Numbered from the stretch's first letter, positions 7,236-50,129 are shown. The stretch is DNA of 64,000 nucleotides from Patescibacteria group bacterium (GCA_038063515.1 JBBTUY010000001.1:10972-74971); one strand, 5' to 3'. The notes: generated from the letters alone by a model not told the origin. Translations and numbers: made by a program.

Positions 7236-7256
7236 TGTCAAAGACCGTCTTTGACA
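7236..7256. repeat. Terminal hairpin TGTCAAAGAC-C-GTCTTTGACA
   Basis: Perfect 10-bp stem read directly; overlaps the transposase stop codon. Confidence 0.8.
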
Positions 7257-10238: not shown

Positions 10239-10275
10239 TTTTGCCAAAAATTCAATTTGGCGTTACAATATAAAT

Positions 10276-10668
10276 ATGAAATTTTTTATAAGTAACCTGG
10301 TTGTTTTTACTTTTTTAGCTTTTGTTTTATTACTACCAACCTTAACTTTATATGCAGACACAAACCCTGTTCCGCCTACGACTACCCCTACTCCTTCCGG
10401 TAAACTAGTAAATCCAATACCAAGTATCACTTCGATACCTGGCCTTATTAAGACTATATTAGAGGGTCTGCTTAAGATCGGCCTTCCGCTCATAGCACTC
10501 GCTATTATTTATTGTGGATTTCTCTTTGTCGTGGCTCAGGGTAGTGAAGAGAAGCTTACTAAAGCAAAGGATACTTTGCTGTATACGATCATAGGATCAG
10601 CGATACTTCTCGGTTCTTGGGCTATTGCCAAGTTAATAGAGACGACTGTCACAGGTCTTGGAGCATAA
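10276..10668 (+). CDS. T4SS pilin-like protein, paralog 2
   Basis: IYCGFLFVVAQGSEEKLTKAKDTLLYTIIGSAILLGSWAIAK module; ATG 10276 chosen after the upstream stop. Confidence 0.55.
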   Translation: MKFFISNLVVFTFLAFVLLLPTLTLYADTNPVPPTTTPTPSGKLVNPIPSITSIPGLIKTILEGLLKIGLPLIALAIIYCGFLFVVAQGSEEKLTKAKDTLLYTIIGSAILLGSWAIAKLIETTVTGLGA

Positions 10669-10672
10669 ATAT

Positions 10673-11227
10673 ATGCTAAATTTACTAAACACAATACAAG
10701 AAATTCTAAATTCTCTCATACCGTTATTTGTAACTATCGGCATAGTGTATTTCGTATTCGGTGTTGTGCAGTATTTTATAGCTGATGCAGAAGAAGCAAA
10801 AAAGAATGGACGAGATAGGATCATCTATGGAATTATAGGCCTAGCGGCTATTACAGGCCTCTGGGGGCTTGTAAAAATAGTGCAGGACACCTTTGGAGTC
10901 AGCAACTTGTACGATCCAAACGTATCTGTTTCTGGTGTGTGTCGCGTGGGCACAACTTTCGCGACTTTGGTTTATTATATTATTTGCATAATAAATAAAT
11001 CCGTCATACCTCTTTTATTTGCGGTATCCATTTTAGTATTTGTATACGGGACGGTAAACTTCTTCATCATAGGTGCAGGCGAAGAAGCAAAGAGGACTCA
11101 AGGCAAGCAGTTTATGATCTGGGGAGTTGTAGCTCTCACGGTGATGCTCTCAGTTTGGGGATTAGTTAAAATTTTTGGTAGCACTTTTAATATTAATACA
11201 AGCGTCATACCACAGACTAAAGAATAA
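10673..11227 (+). CDS. T4SS pilin-like protein with two tandem pilin modules
   Basis: Two consecutive modules (…ADAEEAKKNGRDRIIYG… and …IIGAGEEAKRTQGKQFMIWG…). Confidence 0.55.
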   Translation: MLNLLNTIQEILNSLIPLFVTIGIVYFVFGVVQYFIADAEEAKKNGRDRIIYGIIGLAAITGLWGLVKIVQDTFGVSNLYDPNVSVSGVCRVGTTFATLVYYIICIINKSVIPLLFAVSILVFVYGTVNFFIIGAGEEAKRTQGKQFMIWGVVALTVMLSVWGLVKIFGSTFNINTSVIPQTKE

Positions 11228-11229
11228 TT

Positions 11230-11682
11230 ATGCTTTGCACATTTGCTACTGACTCAAAAATACAAGACGTACTGAACTACATTACCTGCTTTGTGTCAAA
11301 ATCTATATTGCCTCTCATTTTTACAGTGGCTATAGTCCTCTTTGTTTGGGGTATAGTGCAGTTTTTCATTATAGGTTCAGGTGAAGAGGCAAAGAGGACT
11401 CAGGGCAAGCAGTTTATGATCTGGGGAATACTCGCTATGGCAGTGATCTTGTCTCTCTGGGGGCTCGTACGTATCCTAGGGAGCACTTTTGGCTTAAATA
11501 CAAGTATTTTACCAGGTACTCGGCCCTCGTCTTCTTCTAATTTTAATCCCGCAGGTACAGACCCAATAGACCCAGGGAATTTCCCTATTACCTTACCTGG
11601 GTCTGAGAACAGTGATAACGTGGATTCTCCCATACCTTGTGAGTTTAGTGCAGAAGGTTGCGGTGGTCAGGTTGAGAGTTAG
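11230..11682 (+). CDS. T4SS pilin-like protein, paralog with a Pro/Ser/Gly-rich C-terminal tail
   Basis: IIGSGEEAKRTQGKQFMIWG module nearly identical to the one in the upstream gene. Confidence 0.55.
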   Translation: MLCTFATDSKIQDVLNYITCFVSKSILPLIFTVAIVLFVWGIVQFFIIGSGEEAKRTQGKQFMIWGILAMAVILSLWGLVRILGSTFGLNTSILPGTRPSSSSNFNPAGTDPIDPGNFPITLPGSENSDNVDSPIPCEFSAEGCGGQVES

Positions 11683-11776
11683 CTTTTTATTTAGCGTGTA
11701 GTATAATATATAGGTATTATTTATTATTAAAATAGGTCGCTTATTATTATAAATTTATGTTTGTTAAAAATTAGTT

Positions 11777-12190
11777 ATGAAAAATAAATTAATGGTTTTA
11801 TCAGGTTTAGTTATGATGTCTGCTCCTGTCGTTGCTTTAGCACAGGTGCAAATACAGAGCGGTGGGGCATGTAGTGGTCTTATTGGTACTGGTACAACAC
11901 AAGGAGGAGTAAAGGAGATCATATGTCGTGTTGGAGATATATTAAGTACAATAGTCCCAGTATTGATGGTGCTTGCTATCATCTACTTCGTATGGGGAGT
12001 TATTAACTACGTTATCGCTAGTGATGAAGAAGCTAAAAAAGCAGGAAGAGATAGAATTATCTACGGAGTTATAGGTCTTGCTGTTATCGTCGGTGTATGG
12101 GGACTTGTAAAAATCGTTCAAGATACATTTGGTTTTGATAACACTAATACAAACCCTATAGTTCTACCAACTATCGATATCTATAACTAA
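11777..12190 (+). CDS. T4SS pilin-like protein, paralog
   Basis: Signal peptide ending in ALAQ, plus a VIASDEEAKKAGRDRIIYGVIGLAV module. Confidence 0.55.
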   Translation: MKNKLMVLSGLVMMSAPVVALAQVQIQSGGACSGLIGTGTTQGGVKEIICRVGDILSTIVPVLMVLAIIYFVWGVINYVIASDEEAKKAGRDRIIYGVIGLAVIVGVWGLVKIVQDTFGFDNTNTNPIVLPTIDIYN

Positions 12191-16199: not shown

Positions 16200-16259
16200 A
16201 ATTTATTTATAACCTTCCTAATATATCAGAGAAATAAAGAAATGTTAAATAAAATGCTG

Positions 16260-16332
16260 AGGCCACGGTGGGATTTGCACCCACGCGTCGCGGTTTTGCA
16301 GACCGCTGTGTTAGCTACTTCACCACGTGGCC
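16260..16332 (-). tRNA. tRNA-Cys (anticodon GCA), non-canonical T-loop UGCAAAU
   Basis: 7-bp GGCCACG acceptor stem, 5-bp anticodon stem with CTGCAAA loop, 5-bp T-stem; 3-bp D-stem. Confidence 0.65.
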
Positions 16333-17040
16333 TTCTATTATCCTTTTCATTACTTTATCGATAACTTGCGGTCGTAATTTAAAGTAATTATTGAATATTC
16401 TAAATTTTCGCATAAAAAAGGAATTAATGCTAGTGCCTTTATACATCAGCTTAAATAACTCTAAAGAATCTTTTGTATTATATATTAATTGATAGGATCT
16501 TTTACTTACATATATTTTACCATTTTTAATCTCAGCAATTTCTAAAGAAGCCTGCATTTCTTGAAGAAATAATTTACTACCACTTGTAAATATTACACGT
16601 ACTCTTTTGATAATTAATTTTTGAGTTTTACCTTTAGTTTGTAGAAAACTAACACAACCATCACCATCAAAATATCCTCTGACAAAGTCACCTAAGTATT
16701 TTTTTGGAATTTTAGGAAAATTTATCGTTAAGGATTTATTTGGGTATAATCCTAATTTAAAAAGGTCGTTATATATTTTATGGCTGCCTATTCTTAATAT
16801 AAAACAAATTTTTCCTCCTATGAAATTTGATTTTTTCTGACCAATTTTATGCTCAGAATTTAGCCAGTTTTTAATTCTATATATAGAATCTTCATCTGTG
16901 CTTGTTATTTGTATGTATTTACCACGCATGTAAGGGGAATCATCTAAGCTTCCATCAGCGTAGATATAACCTAAAACATATCCCATAGTCGGTGACCATT
17001 TTTTAAAAAACTTTTCGTTAACTTTATATTTTAATCCCAC
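16315..17040 (-). CDS. LAGLIDADG homing endonuclease, double-motif, free-standing
   Basis: Two motifs, LGYIYADGSL and VRGYFDGDGCVSF, about 100 aa apart. The 3' end overlaps the 5' end of tRNA-Cys by about 18 nt. Confidence 0.75.
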   Translation of the reverse strand: MGLKYKVNEKFFKKWSPTMGYVLGYIYADGSLDDSPYMRGKYIQITSTDEDSIYRIKNWLNSEHKIGQKKSNFIGGKICFILRIGSHKIYNDLFKLGLYPNKSLTINFPKIPKKYLGDFVRGYFDGDGCVSFLQTKGKTQKLIIKRVRVIFTSGSKLFLQEMQASLEIAEIKNGKIYVSKRSYQLIYNTKDSLELFKLMYKGTSINSFFMRKFRIFNNYFKLRPQVIDKVMKRIIEGHVVK

Positions 17041-21289: not shown

Positions 21290-24007
21290 ATGCCACCATT
21301 ACATAAATTTACAACTAAAGCTAAAGATGCAATAAAAAAGGCTCACGAGCTTGCCATAGAGCGTGGTGTTAACCACGTGTCATCTTTGCATTTACTAGGA
21401 GCACTGCTTTTAGCAGAGGAGTCTATGGTAAATTCTATTTTAGATAAATTAGACATAGACACGATGCTTTTGACGGATTCTGTTTTAGAGTTGATAGAGC
21501 TACCAGAGGCACATTCGACTTTGTCACCTGCGTATCAGATTTATTTAAATCCAGATCTTGCACAAGTTATAGAACACTCAGCCAAGCTTGCAGAATACAT
21601 GAAGGATGATTTTGTTTCGACAGAGCATTTGTTCATAGCCATTTTAGAAGTTACAAGTGAAGCTCGCGAGACACTGGCTCGTTTTAGGATTGGGAAAGAT
21701 CAGGTTTTGAAAGTCCTCGAAGAGCTTCGCAGTCAAAACATCACAGATGTAAATGAACCAAAGAAATTTAAATTAATTTTAAAATATACAAGGAATCTCA
21801 CAAAATTAGCAAAAGAAGACAAGCTCGATCCTGTCATTGGTCGTGATAGTGAGATTACACGCATCATGCAGATACTTTCTCGAAGGACAAAAAACAATCC
21901 GATACTGATTGGTGAAGCTGGCACAGGTAAGACAGCAGTGGTGGAAGGGCTTGCAGAACGTATAGTAAAAGGTAATGTTCCAGAATCACTAAAAGATAAA
22001 GAGCTTGTATCTCTCGACTTAGGTATGCTTGTCGCCGGTACAAAATACAGAGGCGAATTTGAAGAAAGACTGAAAGGCATAATGAAAGAAATAGAAAGAT
22101 CAGATAATAAAATTATTCTTTTTATTGATGAGATCCACACAATAGTCGGAGCTGGTGGGGCAGAAGGTACTATGGATGCTTCAAATATGCTAAAACCCGC
22201 ACTTTCACGCGGTGAGCTACGTGCGATAGGTGCAACTACTTTAAAAGAATATCAAAAGCACATAGAGAAAGATCCTGCACTCGCTCGTCGTTTCCAGCCT
22301 GTTTACATAGATGAGCCTAGCATCGAAGATGCAGTTACAATACTACGCGGACTTAAAGAAAAGTACGAGCTATTTCACGGTGTGAGGATTACTGATGATG
22401 CGATAATCTCCGCAGTAAATCTTTCTGCTAGATACATCACAAATAGATTTCTTCCAGATAAAGCAGTGGACTTAATAGACGAAGCTTCTTCTTCACTTAA
22501 AATAATGCTTGAGAACAAGCCTGCTGTTTTAGAAGATGCACATAGAAAAATAATGCGTTTTGAAATAGAGAAAGAAGCCCTGAAAAAAGAGCTCTCTGTT
22601 TTAGCTGGAGAAAAAGGTAAAGAAGAGAAAGAAAAAGACAAAGAAATACGAAATAGAATAAAAGAAGTGGATCGTGAAATAGGAAATCTGTATGAAAAGA
22701 CAAAAGAACTCGAGTTAAAATGGACAAATGAAAAGGCTATCGTCACCGAAATCAGAACTATAAAAAAAGAATTAGAGACTATTCGTCTCGAGGCTGAAGA
22801 TGCAGAGATGAAATCAGATCTTTCTCGTGCAGCCGAGATACGCTACGGGAAAATCCCTTCTCTTAAAAAAGATTTAGAAGTAAAACTCACAAGACTTAAG
22901 AAATTACAGAAATCTCGCCGAATATTAAAAGAAGAAATTACAGCGGAAGATATTGCAGAAGTTGTTTCTCGTTGGACAGGTATTCCTCTTACAAAGATGC
23001 TTGAAGAAGAGCGTGTAAAGTTAGAGAAAATGGAGCTTGAATTAAATAAAAGAGTTGTCGGACAGACTGAAGCCATATCTCGTGTGGCAAATGTTATCAG
23101 ACGTTCTCGTGCTGACATAGGAGATCCCAATAGACCCATAGGCTCATTTATGTTCCTAGGTCCTACTGGTGTCGGTAAGACAGAGCTTACAAAGACTCTC
23201 GGGCAATTTATGTTTAATGACGAGCGAGCAATTATCAGGGTGGACATGTCAGAATACATGGAAAGACATTCTGTATCAAAACTCATTGGTTCACCTCCTG
23301 GATACATAGGATATGATGAGGCAGGACAGCTGACCGAGTCTGTACGACACAGACCGTACTCTGTTGTTTTATTTGATGAGATTGAAAAGGCACATCCTGA
23401 AGTTTTCAATATGCTTTTGCAAGTTATTGACGAGGGAAGACTTACGGATGGAAAAGGAAGAATGGTTAATTTTAAAAATACAATTATCATTCTTACCTCC
23501 AACCTAGGATCACAGTTTGTAGAGAAGATGGAGTCTATCGGTTTCTCTAATAACTCTAAAAAGGATGACTATACCAACATGAAAGAAAAGGTTATGGAAA
23601 CCTTAAAAGATAGTTTCCGTCCAGAATTTTTAAACCGTCTTGATGAGATTATAGTATTCGATATTCTTACACCCGAGTCTATTCGTGAGATTGTAAACCT
23701 CAGGATTAAAGTTGTGCAACATCGTTTATTTGCAAAGGGTATTACCTTATCTCTCGATGATGACGCTATCTCTTATTTGGTAAAAGAAGGATACGATCCA
23801 CATTATGGCGCACGACCTTTGAACCGCTTAATTCAAAATAAAATATTAAACCCTGTTGCTTCATATATAATAAGCAATCAAGTAAAGAAAGGGGACAGTG
23901 TCTTTGTAAGTGCTAAAAATAACGAGCTTGTTATTGAAAACAGAAAACCTGCTAAAACTGGTAAAATAAAAAGCACCATTCACACTAGCTCTCGCTCTAA
24001 AGTTTAA
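21290..24007 (+). CDS. clpB: ATP-dependent chaperone ClpB
   Basis: Clp N-domain repeats, two AAA+ modules (GEAGTGKT; [10 protein letters not shown]) and a long coiled-coil middle domain. Confidence 0.9.
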
Positions 24008-26148: not shown

Positions 26149-27180
26149 ATGTCTATAACAATATCTTTTAAACCAAAAAAAGTTACTAAAAAAATAACAT
26201 CAGAACTCGCATCTCGCGCTTCTGATGTTATTGTCAATCGTTTCGGATTAACTCTTGACGGTAAAAGAAAAACTCTCGAAGAGATAGGAAAGAAATACAA
26301 CATCACCAGAGAAAGAGTTCGCCAGATTGAAGAAGTAGCAATAGCTTCTATAAAAAAGTCTGGTGCGTACCACACAGAGCAAGCTATTTTCGAAGAGTTG
26401 AAGCAACTTATGCACAAGCTAGGATCAGTCGTAGCGGAGCATGAGCTTCTTCCTTATATTTCTAAAGATAAAATAACTCAGAATCATATTCATTTCTTGC
26501 TTACACTAAGTGATTCTTTTAAAAAGCATCGTGAAGATCAGCATTTTCATTCACGTTTTAGTGTGGATGATGAGATGGCATTACGTGTGCATGAAGCACT
26601 ACGTAAGTTGTATTCGAGTTTAAGTGACGAAGACCTGGTTACAGAAACTGAAATAATAAAAAAGTTTTTTGATCACCTTAAAGAGGTTGCAGAGGAATAC
26701 AGAGATGATGAGATAGTAAAGAGGTGGCTTTCTATGTCTAAGACTATTGCTAAGAATCCGCTTGGTGAGTGGGGTAAAGCTTCTTCTCCAAATATAAAGA
26801 TTCGCGGAGTTAAAGATTACGCTTTTCTTGTCATGAGAAGTCATGGTTCTCCTATGCATTTTCGTGAAGTTGCAGACTCTATATCTAAGACTTTTAGTAA
26901 AAAGATACACTACGCTACATGTCACAATGAATTAATCAAAGATCCACGATTTGTTTTAGTAGGTCGCGGTATATACTCGCTTGCTGAGTGGGGATACAAG
27001 TCTGGTACCGCTCGCGAAGTTATGATAGATATATTAAAAAAAGAAGGACCACTCTCACGAGAAGATATAATTTCCAAAGTTAATAAAGAGAGATACTTTA
27101 AGAAAAATACTATTTTAGTAAACCTTGTAAACTCTAAGTTTTTCAAGAAAAACAAAGAAGGACTCTATATTCTAGCTTAA
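26149..27180 (+). CDS. Putative transcription factor: N-terminal sigma-70 region-4-like HTH, C-terminal HARE-HTH-like domain
   Basis: KRKTLEEIGKKYNITRERVRQIEEVAI (sigma region 4.2 signature); C-terminal GRGIYSLAEWGY (HARE-HTH/RpoE-delta-like). Confidence 0.4.
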   Translation: MSITISFKPKKVTKKITSELASRASDVIVNRFGLTLDGKRKTLEEIGKKYNITRERVRQIEEVAIASIKKSGAYHTEQAIFEELKQLMHKLGSVVAEHELLPYISKDKITQNHIHFLLTLSDSFKKHREDQHFHSRFSVDDEMALRVHEALRKLYSSLSDEDLVTETEIIKKFFDHLKEVAEEYRDDEIVKRWLSMSKTIAKNPLGEWGKASSPNIKIRGVKDYAFLVMRSHGSPMHFREVADSISKTFSKKIHYATCHNELIKDPRFVLVGRGIYSLAEWGYKSGTAREVMIDILKKEGPLSREDIISKVNKERYFKKNTILVNLVNSKFFKKNKEGLYILA

Positions 27181-39710: not shown

Positions 39711-39738
39711 AAAAATCCCCTTTATAAGAGGATTTTTT
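39711..39738 (+). terminator. Terminator hairpin AAAATCCCC...GAGGATTTTTT after rpsI
   Basis: Stem with one mismatch followed by T6. Confidence 0.55.
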
Positions 39739-39739
39739 G

Positions 39740-39748
39740 TGCTATAAT
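39740..39748 (+). promoter_or_regulatory. Extended -10 promoter TGcTATAAT, 6 nt upstream of the grpE ATG (leaderless arrangement)
   Basis: TGnTATAAT read directly at 39740-39748; ATG at 39755. Confidence 0.45.
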
Positions 39749-39754
39749 ACACAT

Positions 39755-40348
39755 ATGAGTGACGAAAATGAGCTAAATAAAGAAGAAGAAATCTCTATAC
39801 CCGAAGAGGAAACTGAGGTTGAAGAATTTGAATTCAATGATGACGGGGAGGAGGATTTAAAGAAAACTCTTAAGAAATTAAGGGTGGATTTGAAAGTTGC
39901 TAAGAAAGAAAAAGAAGAATACCTGACAGGCTGGCAGAAAGAGCGAGCGGACTTTATAAATTACAAAAAAGAAGAGGCGACCAGACAGAGCATGATGTCA
40001 AATGTTTTTCGTGAAAGTATAATTTCAGAATTTTTATCTGTGGCAGATAGCTTTGATGTGGCATTTTCCAACAAGGAGGCATGGGAAAAAGTAGATGCAA
40101 ACTGGCGTACAGGCGTCGAGTACATTTATTCTCAAATGAATGGCATCTTTGAAAATTACGGAGTGAAAAGCTTGGGTGTAGAAGGAGAGAATTTTGATCC
40201 CAATATTCACCAGTCTATAGAAGTAGTAGATACAGACAAAAAAGATCTTGATCACAAAGTAGCAAAAGTAATTCAAAAAGGTTATAAGCTCGGCGAACGA
40301 GTCATGCGCCCTGCTCGGGTAAATGTATACGAATACAAAGATTTGTAG
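39755..40348 (+). CDS. grpE: Nucleotide exchange factor GrpE
   Basis: RADFINYKKE (GrpE RxEFxNYRKR-like) and C-terminal GYKLGERVMRPARVNV. Confidence 0.8.
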   Translation: MSDENELNKEEEISIPEEETEVEEFEFNDDGEEDLKKTLKKLRVDLKVAKKEKEEYLTGWQKERADFINYKKEEATRQSMMSNVFRESIISEFLSVADSFDVAFSNKEAWEKVDANWRTGVEYIYSQMNGIFENYGVKSLGVEGENFDPNIHQSIEVVDTDKKDLDHKVAKVIQKGYKLGERVMRPARVNVYEYKDL

Positions 40349-40364
40349 ACGTCCGACGTCTACA
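40344..40364. repeat. Perfect palindrome TGTAGACGTC-C-GACGTCTACA spanning the grpE stop codon
   Basis: 10-bp arms read directly. Followed by A5 rather than a T-run, so it is not a canonical terminator. Confidence 0.4.
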
Positions 40365-40402
40365 AAAAGCTTAGTTTATCATATATGATATATTAAGGAT
40401 TT

Positions 40403-42094
40403 ATGAAAAGTGAAACTAAAAACTGCCAGAATTGTAAAAAAGATTTCGTAATAGAAACTGAGGATTTTGACTTTTATGAAAAGATAAAAGTGCCTCCACC
40501 GACGTGGTGCCCAGAGTGTAGGCAAGTACGTCGCTATGCTTGGAGAAATGAACGTACTCTGTACAGGAGAAACTGTGATCTCTGTAAGAAAAATATGGTG
40601 ACAATATATTCACCGAACAAACCATTTGTAGTGTATTGCAATGAATGCTGGTGGGGTGATGGCTGGGATCCAGCTTCGTATGCCAAAGATTTTGACTTTT
40701 CAAGGCCATTTTTCGAGCAATTTTCTGAGCTCCAGCACGAAGTCCCCCGTATGGCACTTTTAAATAAAAATAGTACTAATTCAGAGTATACTAACCATGC
40801 CGCTAATAATAAAAATTGTTATCTATCATTTACACTTATTGATGATGAAAATGTTATGTATAGTGCGTGGGTTGTAAAATCTCGTGATTGTGTAGATTGT
40901 AGTTTTATATATGAGAAAGGGGAGCGGCTTTATGAAGTAATTGATTCCCGTACTTGTTATCAGTGTCAGTACGGACTTTTTTTTAAAGACTGTTCGTCAG
41001 TGTATTACTCTTATGATTGCCATAGTTGCAATGAATGCTTTTTATCTTCAAATTTACGTAATAAAAGTTATGTTTTTAAAAATGTTCAATACTCGAGGGA
41101 AGAATATTTAGAAAAAATAAAAGAATATAATTTATCTTCTTTTGAAGTACGACAGAAATTAAATGAAGAATTTAAAAATCTATTGGAAAATATTGCTGTC
41201 CACAAGTATGTCGTCAATGAAAGAAACGTAAATTCTACAGGGTCCTTAATTTATGACTGTAAGGATGTAAATAAGGCATTTGAAGTTTATAAAGGAGAAA
41301 ATGGTAAATATATTTATGGTGCAATAAATATAAAAGACTCTATGGATTTGTACCACATAGATGGAGCTGAGTTGTGCTATGAGGTTCATGCTGGTATTAG
41401 AAATACTAATTCCCAGTTTATTACTCTCTGCTATGATAATACTTATATCATTTATAGTGATACCTGTCATAACAGTCAAAACCTTTTCGGCTGTGTTAGC
41501 GTCAAGAAAGGTGAATATGTGATTTTAAATAAGAAATACAGTAAAGAGGATTATCTTATTTTAAGAGAAAAGATTATTGAACATATGAAAAAGGGAGGGG
41601 AATACGGAGAATTTTTTCCTCCCTCCATTGCTCCTGTCACCTACAATGAGACTCAGGGGAATTTATATGAGCCTATGACCAAAGAGGAGGTCTTGGCTAA
41701 GGGATGGAACTGGGAAGAAAATGTACCAGGGACATTTGGTAAAGAAACTATTCCTCACGACCAAATACCAGACAAAATAGAAGATGTCCCCGATTCATAT
41801 TTGAAAGAGATTTTTATTTGTACCGAGTGCTCGAAGAATTACAATATTAATCAAAATGAACTTCTTTTTTATAAAAAAGAAAAAATCCCACTTCCTAGGA
41901 AATGCCCAAATTGTAGATACAAAAGGAGATTTGACTTAAGACCACTTCGCAAGTTGTGGCATCGTATTTGTATGTGCTCGCAAAAGCATAATAATCATGA
42001 AGGTAAATGTGAAGTAGAATTTGAGACCCCATATTCTCCGGATAGAGTTGAAAAAGTGTATTGCGAAAAATGCTACCAGCAAGAAGTCTACTAA
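40403..42094 (+). CDS. Cysteine-rich protein with N- and C-terminal zinc-ribbon modules and internal Cys repeats (hypothetical)
   Basis: About 40 Cys. N-terminal CQNCKKDFVIETEDFDFYEKIKVPPPTWCPECRQVRR and C-terminal CTECSKNYNINQNELLFYKKEKIPLPRKCPNCRYKRR are homologous CxxC...CPxCR ribbons. Confidence 0.5.
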   Translation: MKSETKNCQNCKKDFVIETEDFDFYEKIKVPPPTWCPECRQVRRYAWRNERTLYRRNCDLCKKNMVTIYSPNKPFVVYCNECWWGDGWDPASYAKDFDFSRPFFEQFSELQHEVPRMALLNKNSTNSEYTNHAANNKNCYLSFTLIDDENVMYSAWVVKSRDCVDCSFIYEKGERLYEVIDSRTCYQCQYGLFFKDCSSVYYSYDCHSCNECFLSSNLRNKSYVFKNVQYSREEYLEKIKEYNLSSFEVRQKLNEEFKNLLENIAVHKYVVNERNVNSTGSLIYDCKDVNKAFEVYKGENGKYIYGAINIKDSMDLYHIDGAELCYEVHAGIRNTNSQFITLCYDNTYIIYSDTCHNSQNLFGCVSVKKGEYVILNKKYSKEDYLILREKIIEHMKKGGEYGEFFPPSIAPVTYNETQGNLYEPMTKEEVLAKGWNWEENVPGTFGKETIPHDQIPDKIEDVPDSYLKEIFICTECSKNYNINQNELLFYKKEKIPLPRKCPNCRYKRRFDLRPLRKLWHRICMCSQKHNNHEGKCEVEFETPYSPDRVEKVYCEKCYQQEVY

Positions 42095-42097
42095 AAT

Positions 42098-42676
42098 TTA
42101 TTTACAAAAACTCTCTAAAAGTATTTTCTTAGTTTCTTCGTCTATCATTTGAGTGACGATGATCATGATCTCAGTTGTAAATCCGAGATCTTTTTTAATA
42201 TTTATAAAAAGATGTTCGTACGGGTAGGGGGATATCCATGCAGAATTTTTAAGACATACAAAGCCTGCTTTTTTAAGGAGATAACGCATGCTTTCGCGTT
42301 CACTTTTTCTATCTTCTGGTATGTCGAGAAGTATGATCCTCCAATATCCATCCCACTTGGTGCTCACCATTCCTGTAGTGTTTTCTAGTTTGAGGCTATG
42401 AGTCTTTTTCTTACCTTCTTTTGTGAGTCTCACATAATCATTTTGAGGAGAAGAGATTTGCTCTATAAGCCCAGCTTCCCGGAGTCCTTTGAGGGATCGG
42501 GTAATAGCGTATTTCTGATCAGATAGAGGTTTAGCCTCTATCTTAGAATTATTTAAATTACTTAGGTGTCCAACACCTAAGTTGTGTATTTCAGACAGGG
42601 AAATAGCGGGTTTTTGACCTAAAATCCTTAATATTTTCTTTGAGTATTGATTGTCTTTCTTGTCTTTGCTTGACAT
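42098..42676 (-). CDS. Winged-HTH transcriptional regulator, PaaX-like C-terminal domain (tentative)
   Basis: N-terminal wHTH (KKILRILGQKPAISLSEI), C-terminal WDGYWRIILLDIPEDRKSERESMRYLLKKAGF resembling PaaX_C. Divergent from dnaK. Confidence 0.4.
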   Translation of the reverse strand: MSSKDKKDNQYSKKILRILGQKPAISLSEIHNLGVGHLSNLNNSKIEAKPLSDQKYAITRSLKGLREAGLIEQISSPQNDYVRLTKEGKKKTHSLKLENTTGMVSTKWDGYWRIILLDIPEDRKSERESMRYLLKKAGFVCLKNSAWISPYPYEHLFINIKKDLGFTTEIMIIVTQMIDEETKKILLESFCK

Positions 42677-42784
42677 GCATATATATTATCATATATACTA
42701 CTTTATACAAGTATTTGGTGGTCACGAAATACCTGTAAATATTAAAAAATATCATTAAAATTATTAAATAATCAAACAAAATAT

Positions 42785-44701
42785 ATGTCAAAAATAATAG
42801 GTATAGATTTAGGTACAACAAACTCAGCGGTCGCTTTCATCGAAGGTGGAGCACCAAAAATAATAGAAAACATAGAAGGCTCTCGTACGACTCCTTCGAT
42901 AGTTTCTGTTGCTAAAAATGGAGATAGACTCGTCGGTCTCCTTGCAAAGAGACAAGCCGTCACAAATCCAGAAAATACTGTTTACGGTATCAAGCGTTTT
43001 ATGGGTCACAATTTTGAAGATCCAGAAGTGCAGAAGGACTTAAAAAATGCATCTTTCAAAATTCAAAAAGGAACAAATGGTGGTGTTGAAGTAAAGATTG
43101 GTGATAAATGGATGAGACCAGAAGAAATCTCTGCAATGATTTTAGGTAAAATAAAGGCAGACGTAGAAGCAAAACTCGGAGAGAAGATAACAGAAGCTGT
43201 GATTACAGTTCCTGCATATTTTAACGATGCTCAGAGAAAAGCTACAAAAGACGCAGGTGCAGTCGCAGGACTTGATGTAAAGCGTATTATAAACGAGCCT
43301 ACAGCAGCAGCGCTCGCATACGGATTTAATAAAAAGAAAAATGAAAAAATAGTAGTCTACGACTTCGGTGGAGGAACATTTGATGTATCTGTGCTCGAGA
43401 TTGGTGACGACGTTATCGAAGTTAAGTCTACAGACGGAGACAGTCACTTAGGTGGTCGTGATATAGATCACAAGATCATCGCATGGATCGCGGAAGAGTA
43501 TAAGAAGACTTCAGGTGTAGATGTACGCAACGACAAGCTCGCATTACAGAGACTCGATGAGGCGGCAGAAAAAGCGAAGATCGAACTTTCTACTTCTATA
43601 GAAACAGAAATAAATATTCCATTTATAACTTCTACAGCCGAAGGCCCTCAGCACTTACTTTTGAAGATGACACGTGCACAACTCGAAGCTATAGCAGAAG
43701 AATATATAAACCGTTCTATAGAGATCACAAAGCGTGCTATGTCTGCATCTGGTTTTAAAATGGAAGACATGAATGAGATCATCATGGTCGGAGGTCAAAC
43801 AAGAATGCCTAGAATAGTGGAGGAAGTTAAAAAAGTTTTTGGTAAAACTCCAAACCTTTCTATAAATCCTGACGAAGTGGTAGCGCTCGGTGCTGCGGTG
43901 CAGGCTGGAGTATTGCAGGGTGATGTGCGTGATGTACTTCTTCTCGATGTTATACCTCTTTCTCTCGGTATTGAGACTCTAGGAGGAGTAGCGACAAAGT
44001 TAGTCGAAAGAAATACAACTATCCCATCAAATAAATCTCAGACTTTTTCTACAGCTGCTGACAACCAGACTTCTGTGGAGATACACATAGTCCAAGGTGA
44101 GCGTCCAATGGCGTCTGATAACAAATCTCTAGGAAGATTCATCTTAGATGGAGTTCCACCAGCACCACGCGGTATGCCTCAGATCGAAGTATCTTTTGAT
44201 GTGGATGCAAACGGAATACTAAATGTTACTGCAAAGGATAAAGCTTCAGGTAAAACACAATCCATAAAGATCGAAGCAAGCTCTGGACTTAAAGATGAAG
44301 ACATAAAGAAAATGCAGGCTGATGCTGAGCTTCATGCAGACGAAGATAAAAAGAAGAGAGAATTAGTAGATGTGAAGAATACAGCAGAGATGATCATCTA
44401 CACTGCGGAGAAAGCTATTAAAGATGCTGGTGATAAAATTCCTGCTGAATTAAAAACAGAAGTAGAATCCAAGATCGCTATAGTAAAAAGTGTCAAAGAT
44501 GGCACTGACGAGCTTGCGATAAAGAAAGCTACAGAAGAGCTATCTAATGAAATGTCAAAGATCGGTGAAGCGATGCAAAAAGCAGGCGCAACTGATTCAG
44601 CCTCTTCAGGACCTTCAACTCCCGAAGAACAGCCAGCAGAAGTCAATGACGCTGAATTTAAAGAAAAAGAAGGAGGAGAGGGAGAGCAACCCAAAGCATA
44701 A
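42785..44701 (+). CDS. dnaK: Chaperone DnaK (Hsp70)
   Basis: [23 protein letters not shown] and the full NBD plus SBD organisation. Confidence 0.95.
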
Positions 44702-44740
44702 ACTTTAAACTTGTTCAACATTCGGTATTGAACATTACTA

Positions 44741-44770
44741 AAAAGCCCTAAAATAAAGAGGGGCTTTTTA
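44741..44770 (+). terminator. Terminator hairpin AAGCCCT...AGGGCTT plus T5 after dnaK
   Basis: 7-bp stem with a U-run. Confidence 0.65.
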
Positions 44771-44831
44771 GTTCTCTATTTATTGCTGTGTTGTTCATGC
44801 TCTTCATTTGTTGTGATATAATATAAATCAT

Positions 44832-46916
44832 ATGGAATTTCCAGAAATACCTAAAAATAGAGATATAACCTATTTGGGTCTTACCACGTATAGAGATAAA
44901 AATACGCTCTTCGGCATAAAGCGTAAAGACAGGCGTCAGCATGTATACATTCTCGGAAAGTCCGGTACAGGTAAGTCTGTACTCATGTTTAATATGATTA
45001 TACAAAACATCCAGAATGGGGACGGTGTTTGTTTAGTTGACCCTCACGGAGAAAATGTTGAAGGAGTGCTTTCTTCTATTCCTCCACACAGAGTAAAGGA
45101 TGTAGTTTATTTTAACCCTGCAGATACGGAGCACCATATTGGTTTTAATGTTTTAGAATTAGTTGACCCTCAATACAAGCACCTAGTAGCTTCTGGGCTC
45201 ATGGGAATCTTTACAAAGATATGGGCAAATGCATGGTCTGCTCGTATGGAATACATTTTAAACAATACTATTCTTGCACTTCTTGATACTCCAGGTTCTA
45301 CAATGCTCGGCATTCCTCGAATGCTCGTAGACAAAGATTATCGTCAGAAAATAATTTCAAATTTAAAAGACCCTGTCATTAAAGCCTTCTGGGTGCATGA
45401 ATATGAAGCATGGCAAGATAAATTTAGAAATGAAGCAATAGCACCAATACAAAACAAAGTAGGGCAATTCCTCTCTACGTCTATCATAAGAAATGTTGTC
45501 GGGCAGTCAAAGAGCACTATAGACATTTTCAACATGATGAATGAGGGAAAGATTTTCCTTGTGAATGTTTCTAAGGGTCGCATAGGTGAGGACAACTCTG
45601 CGTTGCTTGGAGGTATGATCATTACCAAGATCCAGCTTGCAGCCATGGAGCGTGTGAGAATTCCTGAAGATTCTCGTCGTGACTTTTATTTATATGTCGA
45701 CGAATTTCAAAATTTCGTTACAGATGCTTTTGCTGGGATTTTGTCTGAGGCTCGAAAATACCGACTAAACCTTACAGTGGCTCACCAGTACACAGCTCAG
45801 CTCGTCTCAGACAAGAGTACGGCAGTGCGTGACGCAGTCTTCGGTAACGTAGGAACCATGATCATTTTTCGTGTCGGTTCTGACGACGCAGAATTCTTAG
45901 AAAAAGAATTTGATCCAGAGTTTACTCCACAGGATATTGTAAATCTTCCAAACTATAAAATTTATCTAAAGCTCATGATAGACGGCGTGACTTCTCGCCC
46001 ATTTTCTTCGAGGACGTTACCTCCTATGGTAAAGTCTGGAAATAAAGAAATAGAAGAGGCTGTTATAAAGTCTTCTCGCGAGCTTTATTGTAAATCAAAA
46101 GAAGAAATAGAAAGAGAAATAAATAATTGGAGTGGCATGTCTCTCGGTGGTGAAGGAGGCGAGTCGGTGAATCAGCCTACGGGTAAATTTGAAATTACAT
46201 GCTCTGCATGTAAGAAGCAGACCACTGTGCCATTTAAGCCTGAGGGAGGTAGGCCCGTGTATTGTAAGGAATGTATGGCAAAGATAAAATCAGGGGAGTT
46301 AAAAGTACAAAAAGGAAAAGACGATCAGATTAAATACGATGATTCAAAGTTTTACAAACCTCTTGCTGATCTTGGTATAGAATACAAGCCTAAGGATGAA
46401 GGCGTAAAATCTGTCATTAATTCTGCCATTAATAAGGAATTAAAAGAAGTAAAGGAGGTTCCTAAAGAAATGCAAAAAGAAAAGGTTGTAAAAAAAGAGG
46501 AAGAAAAACCTCCTTACGTGCAAAAACAAGAAGTTTCACCCCTTAAACAAGCCTTAAATAAAATTACAGAGATAATAAAAACAGAGCCTGCTCCTGTAGT
46601 GGAAGAAGTAAAGGAAACAATAAATAAAGAAGAACCTTCTCCGGAACTTTTAAAAGAGAAAATAAAAGTAATTGCAAAAAAGTCTACAATAGTAACCACC
46701 TCAAAAGATAAATCTGCAAGTAAAGAAGATATGAAAAAACTAAGAGACTTCTTGGCTTCTGCCCCTATGAAACAAACTGAAGAAAATACTAAAAAAGAAA
46801 TTCCTGAAATACAAAAAGAGCCAGAAGTAAAGCCAAGTGAAGAGGATGTTGTACCTCTTCCTAAAAAGCCAAAAGAAGTTCCAGAGGAAGTTTTACGAAA
46901 GATCTTAGAAGATTAA
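44832..46916 (+). CDS. Soluble VirD4/TraG-like (type IV coupling protein family) P-loop ATPase with C-terminal zinc ribbon and Lys/Glu-rich disordered tail
   Basis: Walker A ILGKSGTGKS, then CLVDPHGE; Walker B YLYVDEFQNF; ARKYRLNLTVAHQYTAQL (T4CP RKYG...Q..QL-like). CSACKK...RPVYCKECM ribbon. No TM helices. Confidence 0.55.
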   Translation: MEFPEIPKNRDITYLGLTTYRDKNTLFGIKRKDRRQHVYILGKSGTGKSVLMFNMIIQNIQNGDGVCLVDPHGENVEGVLSSIPPHRVKDVVYFNPADTEHHIGFNVLELVDPQYKHLVASGLMGIFTKIWANAWSARMEYILNNTILALLDTPGSTMLGIPRMLVDKDYRQKIISNLKDPVIKAFWVHEYEAWQDKFRNEAIAPIQNKVGQFLSTSIIRNVVGQSKSTIDIFNMMNEGKIFLVNVSKGRIGEDNSALLGGMIITKIQLAAMERVRIPEDSRRDFYLYVDEFQNFVTDAFAGILSEARKYRLNLTVAHQYTAQLVSDKSTAVRDAVFGNVGTMIIFRVGSDDAEFLEKEFDPEFTPQDIVNLPNYKIYLKLMIDGVTSRPFSSRTLPPMVKSGNKEIEEAVIKSSRELYCKSKEEIEREINNWSGMSLGGEGGESVNQPTGKFEITCSACKKQTTVPFKPEGGRPVYCKECMAKIKSGELKVQKGKDDQIKYDDSKFYKPLADLGIEYKPKDEGVKSVINSAINKELKEVKEVPKEMQKEKVVKKEEEKPPYVQKQEVSPLKQALNKITEIIKTEPAPVVEEVKETINKEEPSPELLKEKIKVIAKKSTIVTTSKDKSASKEDMKKLRDFLASAPMKQTEENTKKEIPEIQKEPEVKPSEEDVVPLPKKPKEVPEEVLRKILED

Positions 46917-46931
46917 TTTAATAATTTATAT

Positions 46932-48410
46932 ATGCCAAAGCCAAATAGAATACAAATAATAAAATACGGTCCACCACCACCAGAACTTCCTGTTTTCGGT
47001 AAGGTAAAACCTGAAGACGTATCTTTTATAGGCCGTACGAATTACGTGGCTGCACTTGAAGAAAAGAAATTCGTCTTTGGTATCAAAAGGGTAGATAGGA
47101 GAAGGCACCTATACATCATAGGAAAGTCGGGAGTGGGGAAGACTAAGCTTCTTGAGCTTTTTTTGCGTCAGGATATCACCTATGGACATGGACTTTGTCT
47201 CATAGACCCTCACGGAGACGTGATAGACGCAATGCTTGATTATATTCCTAAGGAACGCATTGATGACGTATGTATTATAGACCCATCTGATATTGATTTC
47301 CCTGCATCATTTAATCCTCTTTCAAACGTGGATCCTATGTTTAAGTTTCAGCTTACGCAAGGACTCATCGAAGTTTTCCAAAAGCAATTCGGAGCCAACT
47401 GGACTCCACGTCTTGAGCACGTTTTTCGTTTCACTTGCCTTGCACTTCTAGACTATCCTCATGCGACGATGCGTGGAATGATATCAATGCTTACAGATAG
47501 AAACTACAGACAGAAAGTTGTGGAATACATCACAGATGACATGGTGAAAAGATTCTTCGCTATTGAATTCGCTGATTGGTCTGAGAAGTTCGATACTGAC
47601 GCTATAATCCCGCTTGTAAACAAACTAGGACAATTTCTCTCTGACCCACTGCTACGTAATATTTTCGGTCAGAAACAAAACAAAATAGACATAAGCAAGC
47701 TCATGAATACTCAAAAGATAATTTTTATTAATTTATCTAAGGGTCGCCTCGGTGAGGAGAATTCTTCATTTCTCGGTTCTATGTTTTTAACAAAGATAAA
47801 ACAAGCAGGCATGGAGCGTGCAGGTATGCCAGAGAGTGCACGTAAAGACTTCTACATATATGTGGATGAGTTTCAGAATGTTGTGACGCAAACATTTGAA
47901 AATATTTTATCTGAGGCCCGTAAGTACGGACTCAATCTCACCATGGCTCACCAGTATGTGGGACAAATAATCACAAAAGTTCACCAAGCTGTACTTGGTA
48001 ACTGCGGTAGTATTATTACTTTTCGTATAGGTGGTGAAGATGCAGTGAAATTAAAACCAGAATTTTCCCCACTTTTTGATGTTAAAGATATGATCAATCT
48101 CGCTGTGACAGAATTTTATATAAAAATGACTATTGATGGTGAATCTTACGATCCATTTTCAGCTGAGACTTTACGAGTTTTACCTCCAACGCACGAGTCT
48201 TATAGAGAAGAAATAATTGCTGCATCTAGAGCAAAATATTCAATACCCAAAGATGATGCACAGAAATTAATTGCTGAAGAAGAAGCCACTATCATCAGAA
48301 GCGTCGAAGAAAAGGCTATGATCGAAGGTAAAGCAAAGAATAAAGACGGTATGGGTAATGAAACAACAGAAACTCCAAAAGTAAAAGAAGAAGTGCAGCC
48401 AATGATATAA
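46932..48410 (+). CDS. Soluble VirD4/TraG-like P-loop ATPase, paralog of the upstream gene
   Basis: IIGKSGVGKT / CLIDPHGD / YIYVDEFQNV / ARKYGLNLTMAHQYVGQI in the same order as in 44832-46916. Confidence 0.55.
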   Translation: MPKPNRIQIIKYGPPPPELPVFGKVKPEDVSFIGRTNYVAALEEKKFVFGIKRVDRRRHLYIIGKSGVGKTKLLELFLRQDITYGHGLCLIDPHGDVIDAMLDYIPKERIDDVCIIDPSDIDFPASFNPLSNVDPMFKFQLTQGLIEVFQKQFGANWTPRLEHVFRFTCLALLDYPHATMRGMISMLTDRNYRQKVVEYITDDMVKRFFAIEFADWSEKFDTDAIIPLVNKLGQFLSDPLLRNIFGQKQNKIDISKLMNTQKIIFINLSKGRLGEENSSFLGSMFLTKIKQAGMERAGMPESARKDFYIYVDEFQNVVTQTFENILSEARKYGLNLTMAHQYVGQIITKVHQAVLGNCGSIITFRIGGEDAVKLKPEFSPLFDVKDMINLAVTEFYIKMTIDGESYDPFSAETLRVLPPTHESYREEIIAASRAKYSIPKDDAQKLIAEEEATIIRSVEEKAMIEGKAKNKDGMGNETTETPKVKEEVQPMI

Positions 48411-48452
48411 ATATTTTCTTGACCAAAGTGTATCTATAAGTATAATACGACT

Positions 48453-49538
48453 ATGAACAAAGACTATTATGAAACATTAGGAGTAAATAAAAATGCCTCA
48501 AAAGAAGAAATCAAGAAGGCTTTTTATAAGCTCGCACACAAATACCACCCTGATAAAAAAGACGGAAATGAAGCTAAATTCAAGCAGGTAAATGAAGCGT
48601 ACCAAGTGCTCTCTGATGACTCTAAACGCTCTAAATATGACCAATACGGCTCTCAATATGAAAACATGGGTCATGCACATGCCGGACACCAAGGTGGCGG
48701 ATTTGAAGGTTTTGACTTTAGTGGCTTTGGACAGGGTGGGGCAGAGTTTGATTTTGGAAACTTAAACGATATCTTTTCTGATTTCTTTGGAGGTGGTATG
48801 GGAGCAAGAAGAGAACAAAGAAGAGGTAGAGACATTTCTACAGAAATACAAGTATCTTTTAGTGATGCTGTTTTTGGCATCACCAGAAAAGTTCTTATCA
48901 CAAAGACTTCTACTTGTGTGACATGTGATGGTAAAGGTGCGAAAATAGGTACTAAAATGGAAACCTGTAAGACATGTAATGGTCAAGGTAAGATACACGA
49001 AACAAAAAGATCATTCCTTGGAAATATTTCTACTACCAAAGTATGTGAGACATGTTTTGGTAGCGGTGAAGTACCAAAAGAAGTCTGTGATAAATGTAAA
49101 GGTAAAGGAGTACTTCGTCGTGAAGAAGAGATAACTATTATGATCCCTGCTGGCATCAGAGACGGTGAGATGATACGTATGACAGGCATGGGCGAAGCAG
49201 TTTCGAGAGGTATGACAGGGGACTTGTATATCAAGATAAACGTTGCTCCACACCCACTATTTAAACGTGACGGTAATGATTTGGTTATGAATCTCGATTT
49301 AAATTTATCTGATGCATTACTCGGTATGAAATATCCTGTAAAAACTTTAGATGGAGACATAGAAGTCACTATTCCTGAAGGAGTAAAGATAAATGAAGTG
49401 CTCCGAGTACGTGGCAAGGGTGTACCAAATAAAAATAAAAGAGGAGACTTGCTTATAAAATTAAATATAAAACTTCCACATAAGATTTCCAAAAAATCTC
49501 GTGAACTTATCGAGCAGCTTAAAAAAGAGGGGATATAA
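48453..49538 (+). CDS. dnaJ: Chaperone DnaJ
   Basis: J-domain with HPD (KYHPDK), G/F-rich linker, four CxxCxGxG repeats. Confidence 0.9.
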
Positions 49539-50129
49539 ATGAACTTCGAACAAATAATCGCTTGTATTATTCTTATTATCCAGTCTATTGGAGTTTTTTT
49601 CTATATTCGTGATATGGTGCGTGGCACCACGAAACCAAACAGGATTACTTGGTTTATCTGGGCTCTGGCCCCGCTCATTACAACATGGATTGCAGTTAAA
49701 GCTGGTTCAGGACTTTCGATACTTCCAGTATTTCTAGCTGGATTTAATCCAGTTTTAGTTCTTATTGCTTCTTTTATAATTAAAAAAGGCTATTGGGAAA
49801 TAACCAAACTTGATGTTGTGTGTGGTATTTTAGCGGGTATCTCACTTTTGTTGTGGTTATTAACGCAAAGTTTTTGGGTTTCAATATTATTTGCGATTTT
49901 AAGTGATGGACTTGCTGCAGTTCCAACATTAATAAAATCATGGAAATTTCCTGAGACTGAAACTTCTTCTGCATATCTTGGCGGTGCAGTTGCCAATGTT
50001 CTTGGTCTTATAATAATTAAAGAGTGGACTTTCCCTATATACTCGTTTGGAGTTTATAATATTTTAATCAATTTACTAATCCTTTGTTTTATCCATCGCA
50101 AAAAGATTTTATTTTGGTATACTAGATAA
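49539..50129 (+). CDS. Polytopic membrane protein, hypothetical
   Basis: About 6 hydrophobic helices; no family signal recognised. Confidence 0.35.
   Translation: MNFEQIIACIILIIQSIGVFFYIRDMVRGTTKPNRITWFIWALAPLITTWIAVKAGSGLSILPVFLAGFNPVLVLIASFIIKKGYWEITKLDVVCGILAGISLLLWLLTQSFWVSILFAILSDGLAAVPTLIKSWKFPETETSSAYLGGAVANVLGLIIIKEWTFPIYSFGVYNILINLLILCFIHRKKILFWYTR

Follow-up and report, generated by a model that had tools for sequence, protein, structure and literature searches.

In a stretch of 64,000 nucleotides (nt) from a Patescibacteria group bacterium (GCA_038063515.1 JBBTUY010000001.1:10972-74971, hereafter the window), the heat-shock genes grpE, dnaK and dnaJ alternate with a gene for a cysteine-rich zinc-finger (CYS) protein, a divergent PaaX-like regulator gene and two genes for ATPases that resemble type IV coupling proteins (T4CPs), here called ATPase1 and ATPase2. 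We read this arrangement as a clade-specific, stably inherited rearrangement in which three separate things are interleaved. This reading, to which we assign a probability of about 0.6, involves no mobile insertion and probably no dedicated Hsp70-ATPase machine. The evidence comes from gene order in close relatives, in a sister lineage and in distant Patescibacteria.

The window is a Patescibacteria, Nomurabacteria-like contig, and its clade is one of ultra-small bacteria from groundwater. Identical DNA occurs within a 191-kb contig of a Hainich groundwater metagenome (0.1-µm-filtered; ENA ERZ1292624), its ATPase1 protein is deposited as "Patescibacteria group bacterium", and a bacterial ribosomal block (S13-S11-S4-rpoA-L17-L13-S9) lies upstream of the heat-shock locus. 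Related loci were the 80 best in a scan that took a single genome for each GTDB species, and 81 non-redundant loci were compared. The 80 carried Patescibacteria-type labels (Nomurabacteria, Paceibacterota, Minisyncoccia and some mislabelled Saccharibacteria) or no taxon label. Across these species-level loci the genes follow one order: S9, grpE, zero to three CYS genes, the PaaX-like gene on the opposite strand, dnaK, a variable segment, ATPase1, zero to five CYS genes, ATPase2, dnaJ and a membrane protein gene. Median identity to the window proteins was 88% for ATPase2 (59 loci), 82% for DnaK, 76% for DnaJ, 72.5% for S9 and 69% for ATPase1, so that ATPase2 is the most conserved protein of the locus, above DnaK itself. 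ATPase1 and ATPase2 are strongly constrained core genes.

A different arrangement was found outside this clade. Sister-lineage loci were obtained by scanning metagenome contigs for the operator pattern described below, and those with enough downstream sequence were inspected. Among the operator-bearing loci, 20 have dnaK followed by ATPase1, 12 carry S9-grpE-PaaX-like-dnaK-dnaJ and two have none of these genes downstream of dnaK. The 12 sister-lineage loci share the PaaX-like/operator/dnaK cassette of the window, their dnaK-dnaJ gap measures 21-191 nt in 11 of 12, and no ATPase gene was found in the stretch fetched for any of them. Their DnaJ is 52-61% and their GrpE 42-53% identical to the window proteins, and they therefore represent a more distant lineage. 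S9-grpE-PaaX-like-dnaK-dnaJ would then be the older state, kept without inserts in the sister lineage. The position of the ATPases between dnaK and dnaJ would be derived, and their link to Hsp70 is weakened.

More distant ATPase homologs point to where the pair may have come from. This sample comprised 11 loci with up to 10 kb of flank per side, nine of them of Patescibacteria type; of the other two, L087 encodes a two-domain protein of another kind in unrelated surroundings, and L092 is too short for judgement. In eight of the nine, the ATPases are adjacent or fused to a DUF8128 protein. The order is DUF8128-ATPase1-ATPase2 in L086, L089 and L095 and likewise in L088, where DUF8128 is a C-terminal fragment at the contig end; in this group MnmA-AlaRS-IF1-S13-S11-S4-rpoA sometimes follows downstream. 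DUF8128::ATPase fusions occur in L085, L090 and L093, with two in tandem in L090 and L093, and L091 has a cut DUF8128 fragment directly 5' of the ATPase. Within that flank, none of grpE, dnaK, dnaJ or the PaaX-like gene was found in any of the 11 loci. The window has its own DUF8128 gene, which adjoins YceG-MnmA-MgtC-AlaRS, the same neighbourhood as in the DUF8128-ATPase loci L086, L088, L089, L090 and L095. The simplest reading of this shared neighbourhood is that, in the window's clade, the ATPase pair would have moved ~17 kb downstream, from beside DUF8128 into the dnaK-dnaJ gap.

These comparisons bear on an earlier note on this DNA, made from the sequence alone, whose open reading frames (ORFs) are all present where it had placed them. 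It had proposed that the ATPases might be coupled to the Hsp70 system. That proposal is weakened by the contiguous dnaK-dnaJ of the sister lineage, by the position of the ATPases beside DUF8128 elsewhere and by the terminator and promoter between dnaK and ATPase1; what stands is the tight spacing within the clade. Relatives with a contiguous dnaK-dnaJ and with the ATPases elsewhere, which the note itself had named as telling against a coupling, are largely what we found, in the 12 sister-lineage loci and eight of the nine distant ones. Its other suggestion, a mobile cassette, did not hold up. A recent insertion of the ATPases, with or without the Cys-rich genes, would fit the variable content of the gaps around them and an IS200-like transposase family that occurs at other sites of the window and at the locus in some relatives. 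However, the order is the same in 80 species-level genomes, at a divergence comparable to that of flanking housekeeping genes, the ATPases belong to the core genes carried almost throughout the phylum, and the locus has an unremarkable GC content, no compositional anomaly, no integrase and no flanking repeats. We find such an insertion scarcely credible.

The region from dnaK to ATPase2 is a hotspot of gene gain and loss in which the order of the anchor genes is kept. Other recurrent genes seen in the gaps between dnaK, ATPase1 and ATPase2 in L005-L084 include, by eye, RsmE-like (on the opposite strand), CutA-like and ArsR-like ORFs, as well as a ~590-aa ABC exporter and a gene pair of 118 and 96 aa.

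DUF8128 is likely the membrane partner of ATPase1 and ATPase2. It is a protein with two transmembrane (TM) segments, and its predicted structure resembles the N-terminal domain of VirB4 and EccE, with template modelling scores (TM-scores) of ~0.3. The layout, a TM hairpin and a domain of this kind fused or adjacent to a ring ATPase, may recall VirB3-VirB4 (TrwM-TrwK) of type IV secretion systems (T4SSs) and EccE-EccC of type VII secretion systems (T7SSs); EccC also has several ATPase modules in a row. The likeness is one of fold only, at that score and with no sequence signal. Unlike in VirB4 and EccC, the ATPase domain here scores as VirD4-like rather than VirB4- or FtsK-like, and no T4SS or T7SS core genes adjoin. 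At the level of fold, DUF8128 and the ATPases could thus assemble into a T4SS/T7SS-like ring ATPase docked at the membrane. A PDB sequence search with DUF8128 gave no match, the literature held nothing relevant on it, and PADLOC gave one marginal Effector (endonuclease) match (E = 0.0052) without system context. A gene with Sigma70_r4 and HARE-HTH domains lies directly 5' of DUF8128 in the window (26149-27180, +), in L090 (2857-3852) and in L095 (6997-8046), and its product may belong to the DUF8128/ATPase module.

The ATPases themselves are paralogs, with 45% identity over 439 aa (E = 3e-136), and neither has a TM segment by hydropathy, which bears out the earlier description of two paralogous soluble ATPases. 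Their Walker motifs are GKSGTGKS and YVDEF in ATPase1 and GKSGVGKT and YVDEF in ATPase2. ATPase1 additionally carries a CxxC-x17-CxxC zinc finger (aa 453-485, nt 46188-46286), and its C-terminal part consists of a K/E/P-rich tail and a conserved C-terminal motif. Both families are very large: ATPase1 has >8000 homologs at ~70% identity, all organism-named ones from Patescibacteria, and the ATPase2 family comprises 21,329 representative clusters. A PDB sequence search matched only the P-loop region of TrwB, and PADLOC returned only weak, generic mad8, HerA and DndH matches, with no defence-system assignment.

Like VirD4 and TrwB, both proteins are P-loop ATPases of the FtsK/HerA superfamily that exceed the Pfam thresholds for TrwB_AAD_bind, T4SS-DNA_transf and TraG-D_C. 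Unlike them, they have no N-terminal TM domain, occur as two paralogs per genome and are partnered by DUF8128, and ATPase1 has its zinc finger and long charged tail. They also fall far below the cutoff of every curated T4CP, VirB4, HerA and CedD model (best NCBIfam T4CP scores, 54.4 bits against 366 and 52.8 against 250). No T4SS or relaxase genes were found within the locus, either in the window or in the 80 related loci, in contrast to the setting of VirD4 and TrwB.

The pair probably corresponds to the "orphan" t4cp homologs of Quinonero-Coronel et al. 2025 (PMC12102498), because passages of that paper report about two VirD4-like homologs per genome, away from virB4 (5,713 in 2,918 of 3,035 Patescibacteria genomes, 148 of them near virB4). 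ATPase1 and ATPase2 would then represent an orphan T4CP-like pair present in nearly all Patescibacteria. The pairing with DUF8128, the Cys-rich neighbours and the dnaK-dnaJ position are not mentioned in the passages of that paper on VirD4, T4CP and DnaK. The same passages place VirB4 in 2,417 Patescibacteria genomes and report that in S. epibionticum a t4cp homolog (one homolog was concerned) was non-essential and the T4SS essential; according to the authors, exaptation of these homologs "cannot be ruled out".

ATPase1 and ATPase2 could nevertheless be bona fide T4CPs of a chromosomal Patescibacteria T4SS, encoded away from virB4 and with their place beside dnaK being neutral. Soluble T4CPs that rely on a separate membrane protein for their recruitment are known from Gram-positive plasmids (pIP501 TraJ/TraI). 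The Pfam matches fit this alternative, as do five VirB2-like pilin genes in the window (9801-12190) and the frequent distance of T4CP genes from virB4 in the passages of PMC12102498. It is harder to reconcile with scores of 27-54 bits for all NCBIfam T4CP equivalogs, whose cutoffs are 250-650, with the lack of a TM domain, and with a DUF8128 that resembles the N-terminal domain of VirB4 and not the TM domain of a T4CP. The passages cited above tell against it as well, in that only 148 of 5,713 homologs lie near virB4, genomes with the ATPase pair (2,918) outnumber those with VirB4 (2,417), and the S. epibionticum homolog was dispensable where the T4SS was not. We regard this alternative as possible but doubtful.

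CYS genes accompany the ATPases. The window protein has two zf_Tbcl-type modules, one N-terminal and one C-terminal, and a terminal CxxC-x17-CxxC-like module, placed around an unmodelled Cys-rich repeat core; no TM segment was found by hydropathy. The family has at least 7500 homologs, all named "hypothetical" and none with a functional name. Of the 81 loci, 64 contain CYS-family ORFs, 183 altogether (a few being fragments of split genes). Most of these sit between ATPase1 and ATPase2; the other main position is between grpE and the PaaX-like gene. Full-length copies number one to six per related locus and fall into ~35 subfamilies below 50% identity. Within orthologous subfamilies, identity is 52-71%, compared with 73-78% for DnaJ, so the family is moderately conserved and not hypervariable. 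CYS genes were absent from the fetched stretch of all 12 sister-lineage loci, which lack the ATPases, and in the otherwise unrelated L085 two successive CYS genes lead into a DUF8128::ATPase fusion, with 4 nt overlapping at the ATPase start. It is thus the ATPases, and not Hsp70, that the family follows.

The CxxC-x17-CxxC finger type is common to CYS and ATPase1, and in Methanosarcina small proteins it binds zinc (PMC12704099). With this finger shared, the ~570-aa CYS proteins might be clients or adaptors of the ATPases. A Pfam scan of diverse CYS paralogs returned zinc-finger modules only, PADLOC gave no match for CYS, and the literature held nothing relevant on Cys-rich zinc-ribbon proteins in Patescibacteria. 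Family f14, two sequences at first assigned to CYS, consists of ABC exporters instead.

The chaperone side of the locus has a feature of its own: there appears, from sequence, to be a candidate new dnaK repressor-operator pair instead of HrcA and its operator CIRCE (controlling inverted repeat of chaperone expression). The earlier note had seen neither HrcA nor CIRCE, and had placed the PaaX-like regulator where HrcA would be expected; both points are upheld. No HrcA domain occurs in the window ORFs scanned, and the CIRCE inverted repeat TTAGCACTC-N9-GAGTGCTAA has 0 matches in the 64-kb window at up to three mismatches. The PaaX-like gene is divergent from dnaK and lies <300 nt from it in 50 of 57 genome loci. 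The note had proposed a search for binding motifs between these two genes, and this region holds a 30-bp palindrome, located between the dnaK promoter and the dnaK start, with 14-bp arms, a 2-bp spacer and the clade consensus ACAAGTATTTCGyGGTCrCGAAATACTTGT.

The palindrome is tied closely to this junction. It is single in the window, with 0 expected by chance, and none lies upstream of clpB, the ATPases, dnaJ or grpE. At least one match (on one strand) occurs in 60 of the 81 non-redundant loci, several of the others ending short of the junction, and in the 60 it is always at the PaaX-like/dnaK junction or, where a gene is inserted there, at the dnaK-proximal promoter. The inserts seen include Y1-transposase-like ORFs (family f28, by eye) between the PaaX-like gene and dnaK in L022, L073 and L083, where the operator stays dnaK-proximal. 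The metagenome scan gave 119 matches, of which 94 are close to a PaaX-like gene, a dnaK gene or both (91 within 700 nt, and three with the PaaX-like gene slightly further); in 76 of the 119 the PaaX-like gene adjoins dnaK. We take the other 25 as chance matches because they have no right arm and no promoter context and most are on contigs of much higher GC. With clpB (21290-24007, +, 19 kb upstream of dnaK) lacking the site, the candidate regulon seems limited to dnaK and the regulator's own gene.

The arms also coincide with promoter elements. Read on the opposite strand, the left arm includes a -35-like hexamer, TTGTAT, which is followed after 16 nt by TGATAATAT, immediately 5' of the PaaX-like ATG, and in many relatives the right arm (CTTGCTAA or CTTGTCAA) is the -35 box of a second dnaK-proximal promoter. 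A dimer of the PaaX_M/winged helix-turn-helix (wHTH) protein would bind the palindrome and repress both dnaK and its own gene. The site lies downstream of the -10 box, would be transcribed into the dnaK leader, and in perfect copies could form a 14-bp stem, so that it might instead act in the RNA, as a 5' untranslated hairpin, thermosensor or attenuator of the dnaK mRNA. However, among 56 sequences several positions are invariant, several arm positions pair in only 36-68% and no compensatory changes occur, a pattern that fits a protein-binding site better than an RNA stem. Moreover, in many loci the arms also serve as -35 boxes, for divergent or tandem promoters, and the site is always linked to the PaaX-like gene. 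We dropped the RNA-hairpin reading for want of compensatory changes and consider it very unlikely.

The PaaX-like/palindrome pair could be a functional analogue of HrcA/CIRCE, which in Bacillota and many others controls grpE-dnaK-dnaJ and groESL operons. There, too, the repressor gene lies by Hsp70 genes and an inverted-repeat operator sits between a vegetative-type promoter and the chaperone start codon. By contrast, the window regulator belongs to another protein family (192 aa, PaaX_M plus wHTH), is divergent rather than the first gene of the operon, and has a different repeat (ACAAGTATTTCGyG-GT-CrCGAAATACTTGT); only dnaK and the regulator carry a candidate site in the sequences examined. 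The regulator shares with PaaX, the phenylacetyl-CoA-responsive repressor of paa genes, a Cas2-like PaaX_M middle domain after a winged-helix region. Still, it has no PaaX_C match, is ~120 aa shorter, scores 32.9 bits against a cutoff of 264.55 for TIGR02277, has no paa genes nearby and is paired with an unrelated operator. PADLOC gave weak CARF3 matches for this protein without system context, and the literature held nothing relevant on HrcA in Patescibacteria or on PaaX with dnaK.

Judged by consensus signals, dnaK looks like a single-gene transcription unit. Its predicted promoter is of the sigma-70 type, reaches with its -35 box into codons 1-2 of the oppositely oriented PaaX-like gene and is kept as CTTGACAT...TATCATATATACT in related loci, and hairpins equivalent to the terminator-like one after dnaK lie 5' of ATPase1 in many relatives. 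The earlier note had recorded only a terminator after dnaK; the terminator is there, but so are promoter-like elements 6-9 nt before the ATPase1 and dnaJ ATGs. With an extended -10 box as close as 9 nt to its ATG, ATPase1 would start with little or no leader, and in most related loci TTGTAAAAT or TGGTATAAT stands ~7 nt before this ATG, after a terminator-like hairpin. Where ATPase2 directly follows ATPase1 it has no promoter, whereas behind intervening CYS genes its ATG is usually preceded, at a distance of a few nt, by an extended -10 box (TG-N-TAAAAT). Short -10-to-ATG spacing recurs upstream of both ATPases in relatives. The relocated ATPases would thus be transcribed from their own leaderless-type promoters, with dnaJ close downstream.

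From ATPase1 onwards the genes form a tightly packed co-directional string, ATPase1-(CYS)n-ATPase2-dnaJ-membrane protein, with internal promoters and median gaps of 7, 37, 42, 36 and 3 nt. The last of these, between dnaJ and the gene for the 196-aa membrane protein, is the median of 29 related loci. The sequence suggests that the mRNAs of grpE, the PaaX-like gene, ATPase1 and dnaJ are leaderless or near-leaderless. We also observed -10 or extended -10 boxes 4-9 nt before the ATGs of grpE (39740-39757), the PaaX-like gene (42677-42690), ATPase1 (44814-44834) and dnaJ (48441-48455). The last ATPase2 codons (…E-P-M-I-stop; window 48396-48410; GAGCCTATGATATAA in relatives) are conserved at the DNA level, and in several relatives the final codons match an extended -10 box, TGATATAAA, that precedes the dnaJ ATG by 6 nt. 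The coding end of ATPase2 may double as a dnaJ promoter.

One challenge to a rearrangement without functional coupling is Hsp70-coupled translocation, in which DnaK, DnaJ and GrpE would hold CYS proteins unfolded for DUF8128, ATPase1 and ATPase2, and the interleaving would have been selected for co-expression. Spacing speaks for it: ATPase2-dnaJ is <300 nt in 52 of 53 loci, grpE-CYS is ≤60 nt in 20 of 22 and ATPase1-CYS is ≤60 nt in 34 of 44. The order also persists while other genes come and go in the same gaps, and the VirB2-like pilin array in the window indicates that a T4SS is present. Yet the sister lineage has a contiguous dnaK-dnaJ without ATPases or CYS genes, distant lineages pair the ATPases with DUF8128 and have no Hsp70 genes nearby, dnaK is insulated by a terminator and a promoter, and the operator is not upstream of the ATPases, dnaJ or grpE. 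CYS orthologs, at 52-71% identity, are unlike fast-changing effectors, and the apparently single Hsp70 set per genome is also needed for general proteostasis. Taken together, we judge this alternative unlikely. That chaperones were recruited to the ATPase machinery in the window's clade is a residual possibility, and a small one. A fuller version, with DUF8128, ATPase1 and ATPase2 as a phylum-wide T4SS/T7SS-like membrane motor, CYS proteins as its cargo or adaptors, the sole Hsp70 wired in within the Nomurabacteria-like clade (grpE with CYS, ATPase2 with dnaJ) and dnaK under a new PaaX_M-type repressor and operator, strikes us as improbable.

Several points weigh against our preferred reading of a clade-specific rearrangement of separate parts. 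Genuine co-expression with Hsp70 components could be the cause of the short ATPase2-dnaJ and grpE-CYS distances across the clade. A small sample, nine distant and 12 sister-lineage loci that are unplaced in a phylogeny, underlies the proposed direction of the relocation, and in none of the distant or sister lineages were both the ATPases and dnaK-dnaJ observed in the same genome. L094 has an ATPase pair without an adjoining DUF8128, and the modelled likeness of DUF8128 to VirB4 comes with those low TM-scores and no sequence-level support. The AlphaFold2 model of CYS (48 orthologs; predicted local distance difference test 51, predicted template modelling score 0.24) was too poor for a fold search. 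Finally, the putative pairing of operator and regulator is based on co-location, and the predicted promoters, terminators and leaderless starts are consensus matches.

Table 1. Positions in the window of the genes and candidate control elements discussed.
Feature	Position	Strand	Basis or remark
DUF8128 protein (PF26449), 466 aa	27251..28651	+	N-terminal TM hairpin and VirB4-NTD/EccE-like domain; 17 kb upstream, outside the span of the earlier note
grpE	39755..40348	+	PF01025, 124.8 bits (cutoff 25.8); mechanical ORF from TTG 39737
CYS protein, 563 aa, 31 Cys	40403..42094	+	Only weak treble-clef zinc-finger matches, at both ends
PaaX_M/wHTH protein, 192 aa, candidate dnaK repressor	42098..42676	-	PaaX_M PF20803, 70.8 bits (cutoff 24); weak MarR-type wHTH match
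Predicted dnaK promoter, TTGACA-18 nt-TATACT	42670..42699	+	11/12 consensus matches
30-bp palindromic operator candidate, ACAAGTATTTGGTGGTCACGAAATACCTGT	42707..42736	.	Between dnaK promoter and dnaK start
dnaK	42785..44701	+	NF001413, 930 bits (cutoff 648)
Terminator-like hairpin and T-run after dnaK, AAAAAGCCCT-AAAATAAAG-AGGGGCTTTTT	44741..44770	+	
Predicted ATPase1 extended -10 box, TGATATAAT	44814..44822	+	9 nt 5' of ATPase1 ATG
ATPase1, 694 aa	44832..46916	+	Soluble T4CP-like FtsK/HerA-superfamily P-loop ATPase
ATPase2, 492 aa	46932..48410	+	Paralog of ATPase1
Predicted dnaJ promoter, TTGACC-16 nt-TATAAT	48419..48446	+	11/12 consensus matches; 6 nt before ATG
dnaJ	48453..49538	+	TIGR02349, 393 bits (cutoff 377.2)
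196-aa polytopic membrane protein	49539..50129	+	Hydropathy; directly 3' of dnaJ

Membership of the Hsp70 system is supported for all three chaperone genes (Table 1): DnaK and DnaJ are full-length above curated cutoffs and GrpE exceeds its Pfam cutoff, while falling below the cutoff of every lineage-specific NCBIfam GrpE equivalog. For grpE, the earlier note's start at TTG 39737 gives way to ATG 39755 as the more likely one, because the TTG falls within the T-run of a terminator hairpin downstream of rpsI, and 6 nt separate the ATG from an extended -10 box, TGCTATAAT (39740-39748). The public gene call of 197 aa agrees with this start. The 196-aa membrane protein has no match in Pfam or NCBIfam.

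Other features of the window lie further from the locus. The five VirB2-like T4SS pilin genes (PF18895, one also TrbC/VirB2) are in tandem on the + strand, 33 kb from the ATPases, after a solute-binding protein gene (8494-9789), and no virB4 was found in the window. This array agrees with the pilin arrays described for Patescibacteria T4SSs in the passages of PMC12102498. An IS200-like Y1 transposase gene lies at 7238-7873 (-). Within a cluster of four tRNA genes, a LAGLIDADG homing-endonuclease-like ORF (16315-17040, -) abuts tRNA-Cys (16259-16332).

These results carry a caution on synteny: a gene order conserved in a single clade may point to a functional link that loses support once more lineages are sampled, as here for Hsp70 and the ATPases. 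Patescibacteria account for a large part of bacterial diversity, and their heat-shock regulation is essentially unstudied. A PaaX_M/wHTH protein together with a defined 30-bp site before dnaK offers a candidate, open to direct test, for the HrcA-type control that is missing here. Few proteins of these genomes are as conserved as the two T4CP-like ATPases, whose function the literature describes as unknown. Their link to DUF8128 and to a very large family of Cys-rich zinc-finger proteins gives them concrete candidate partners.

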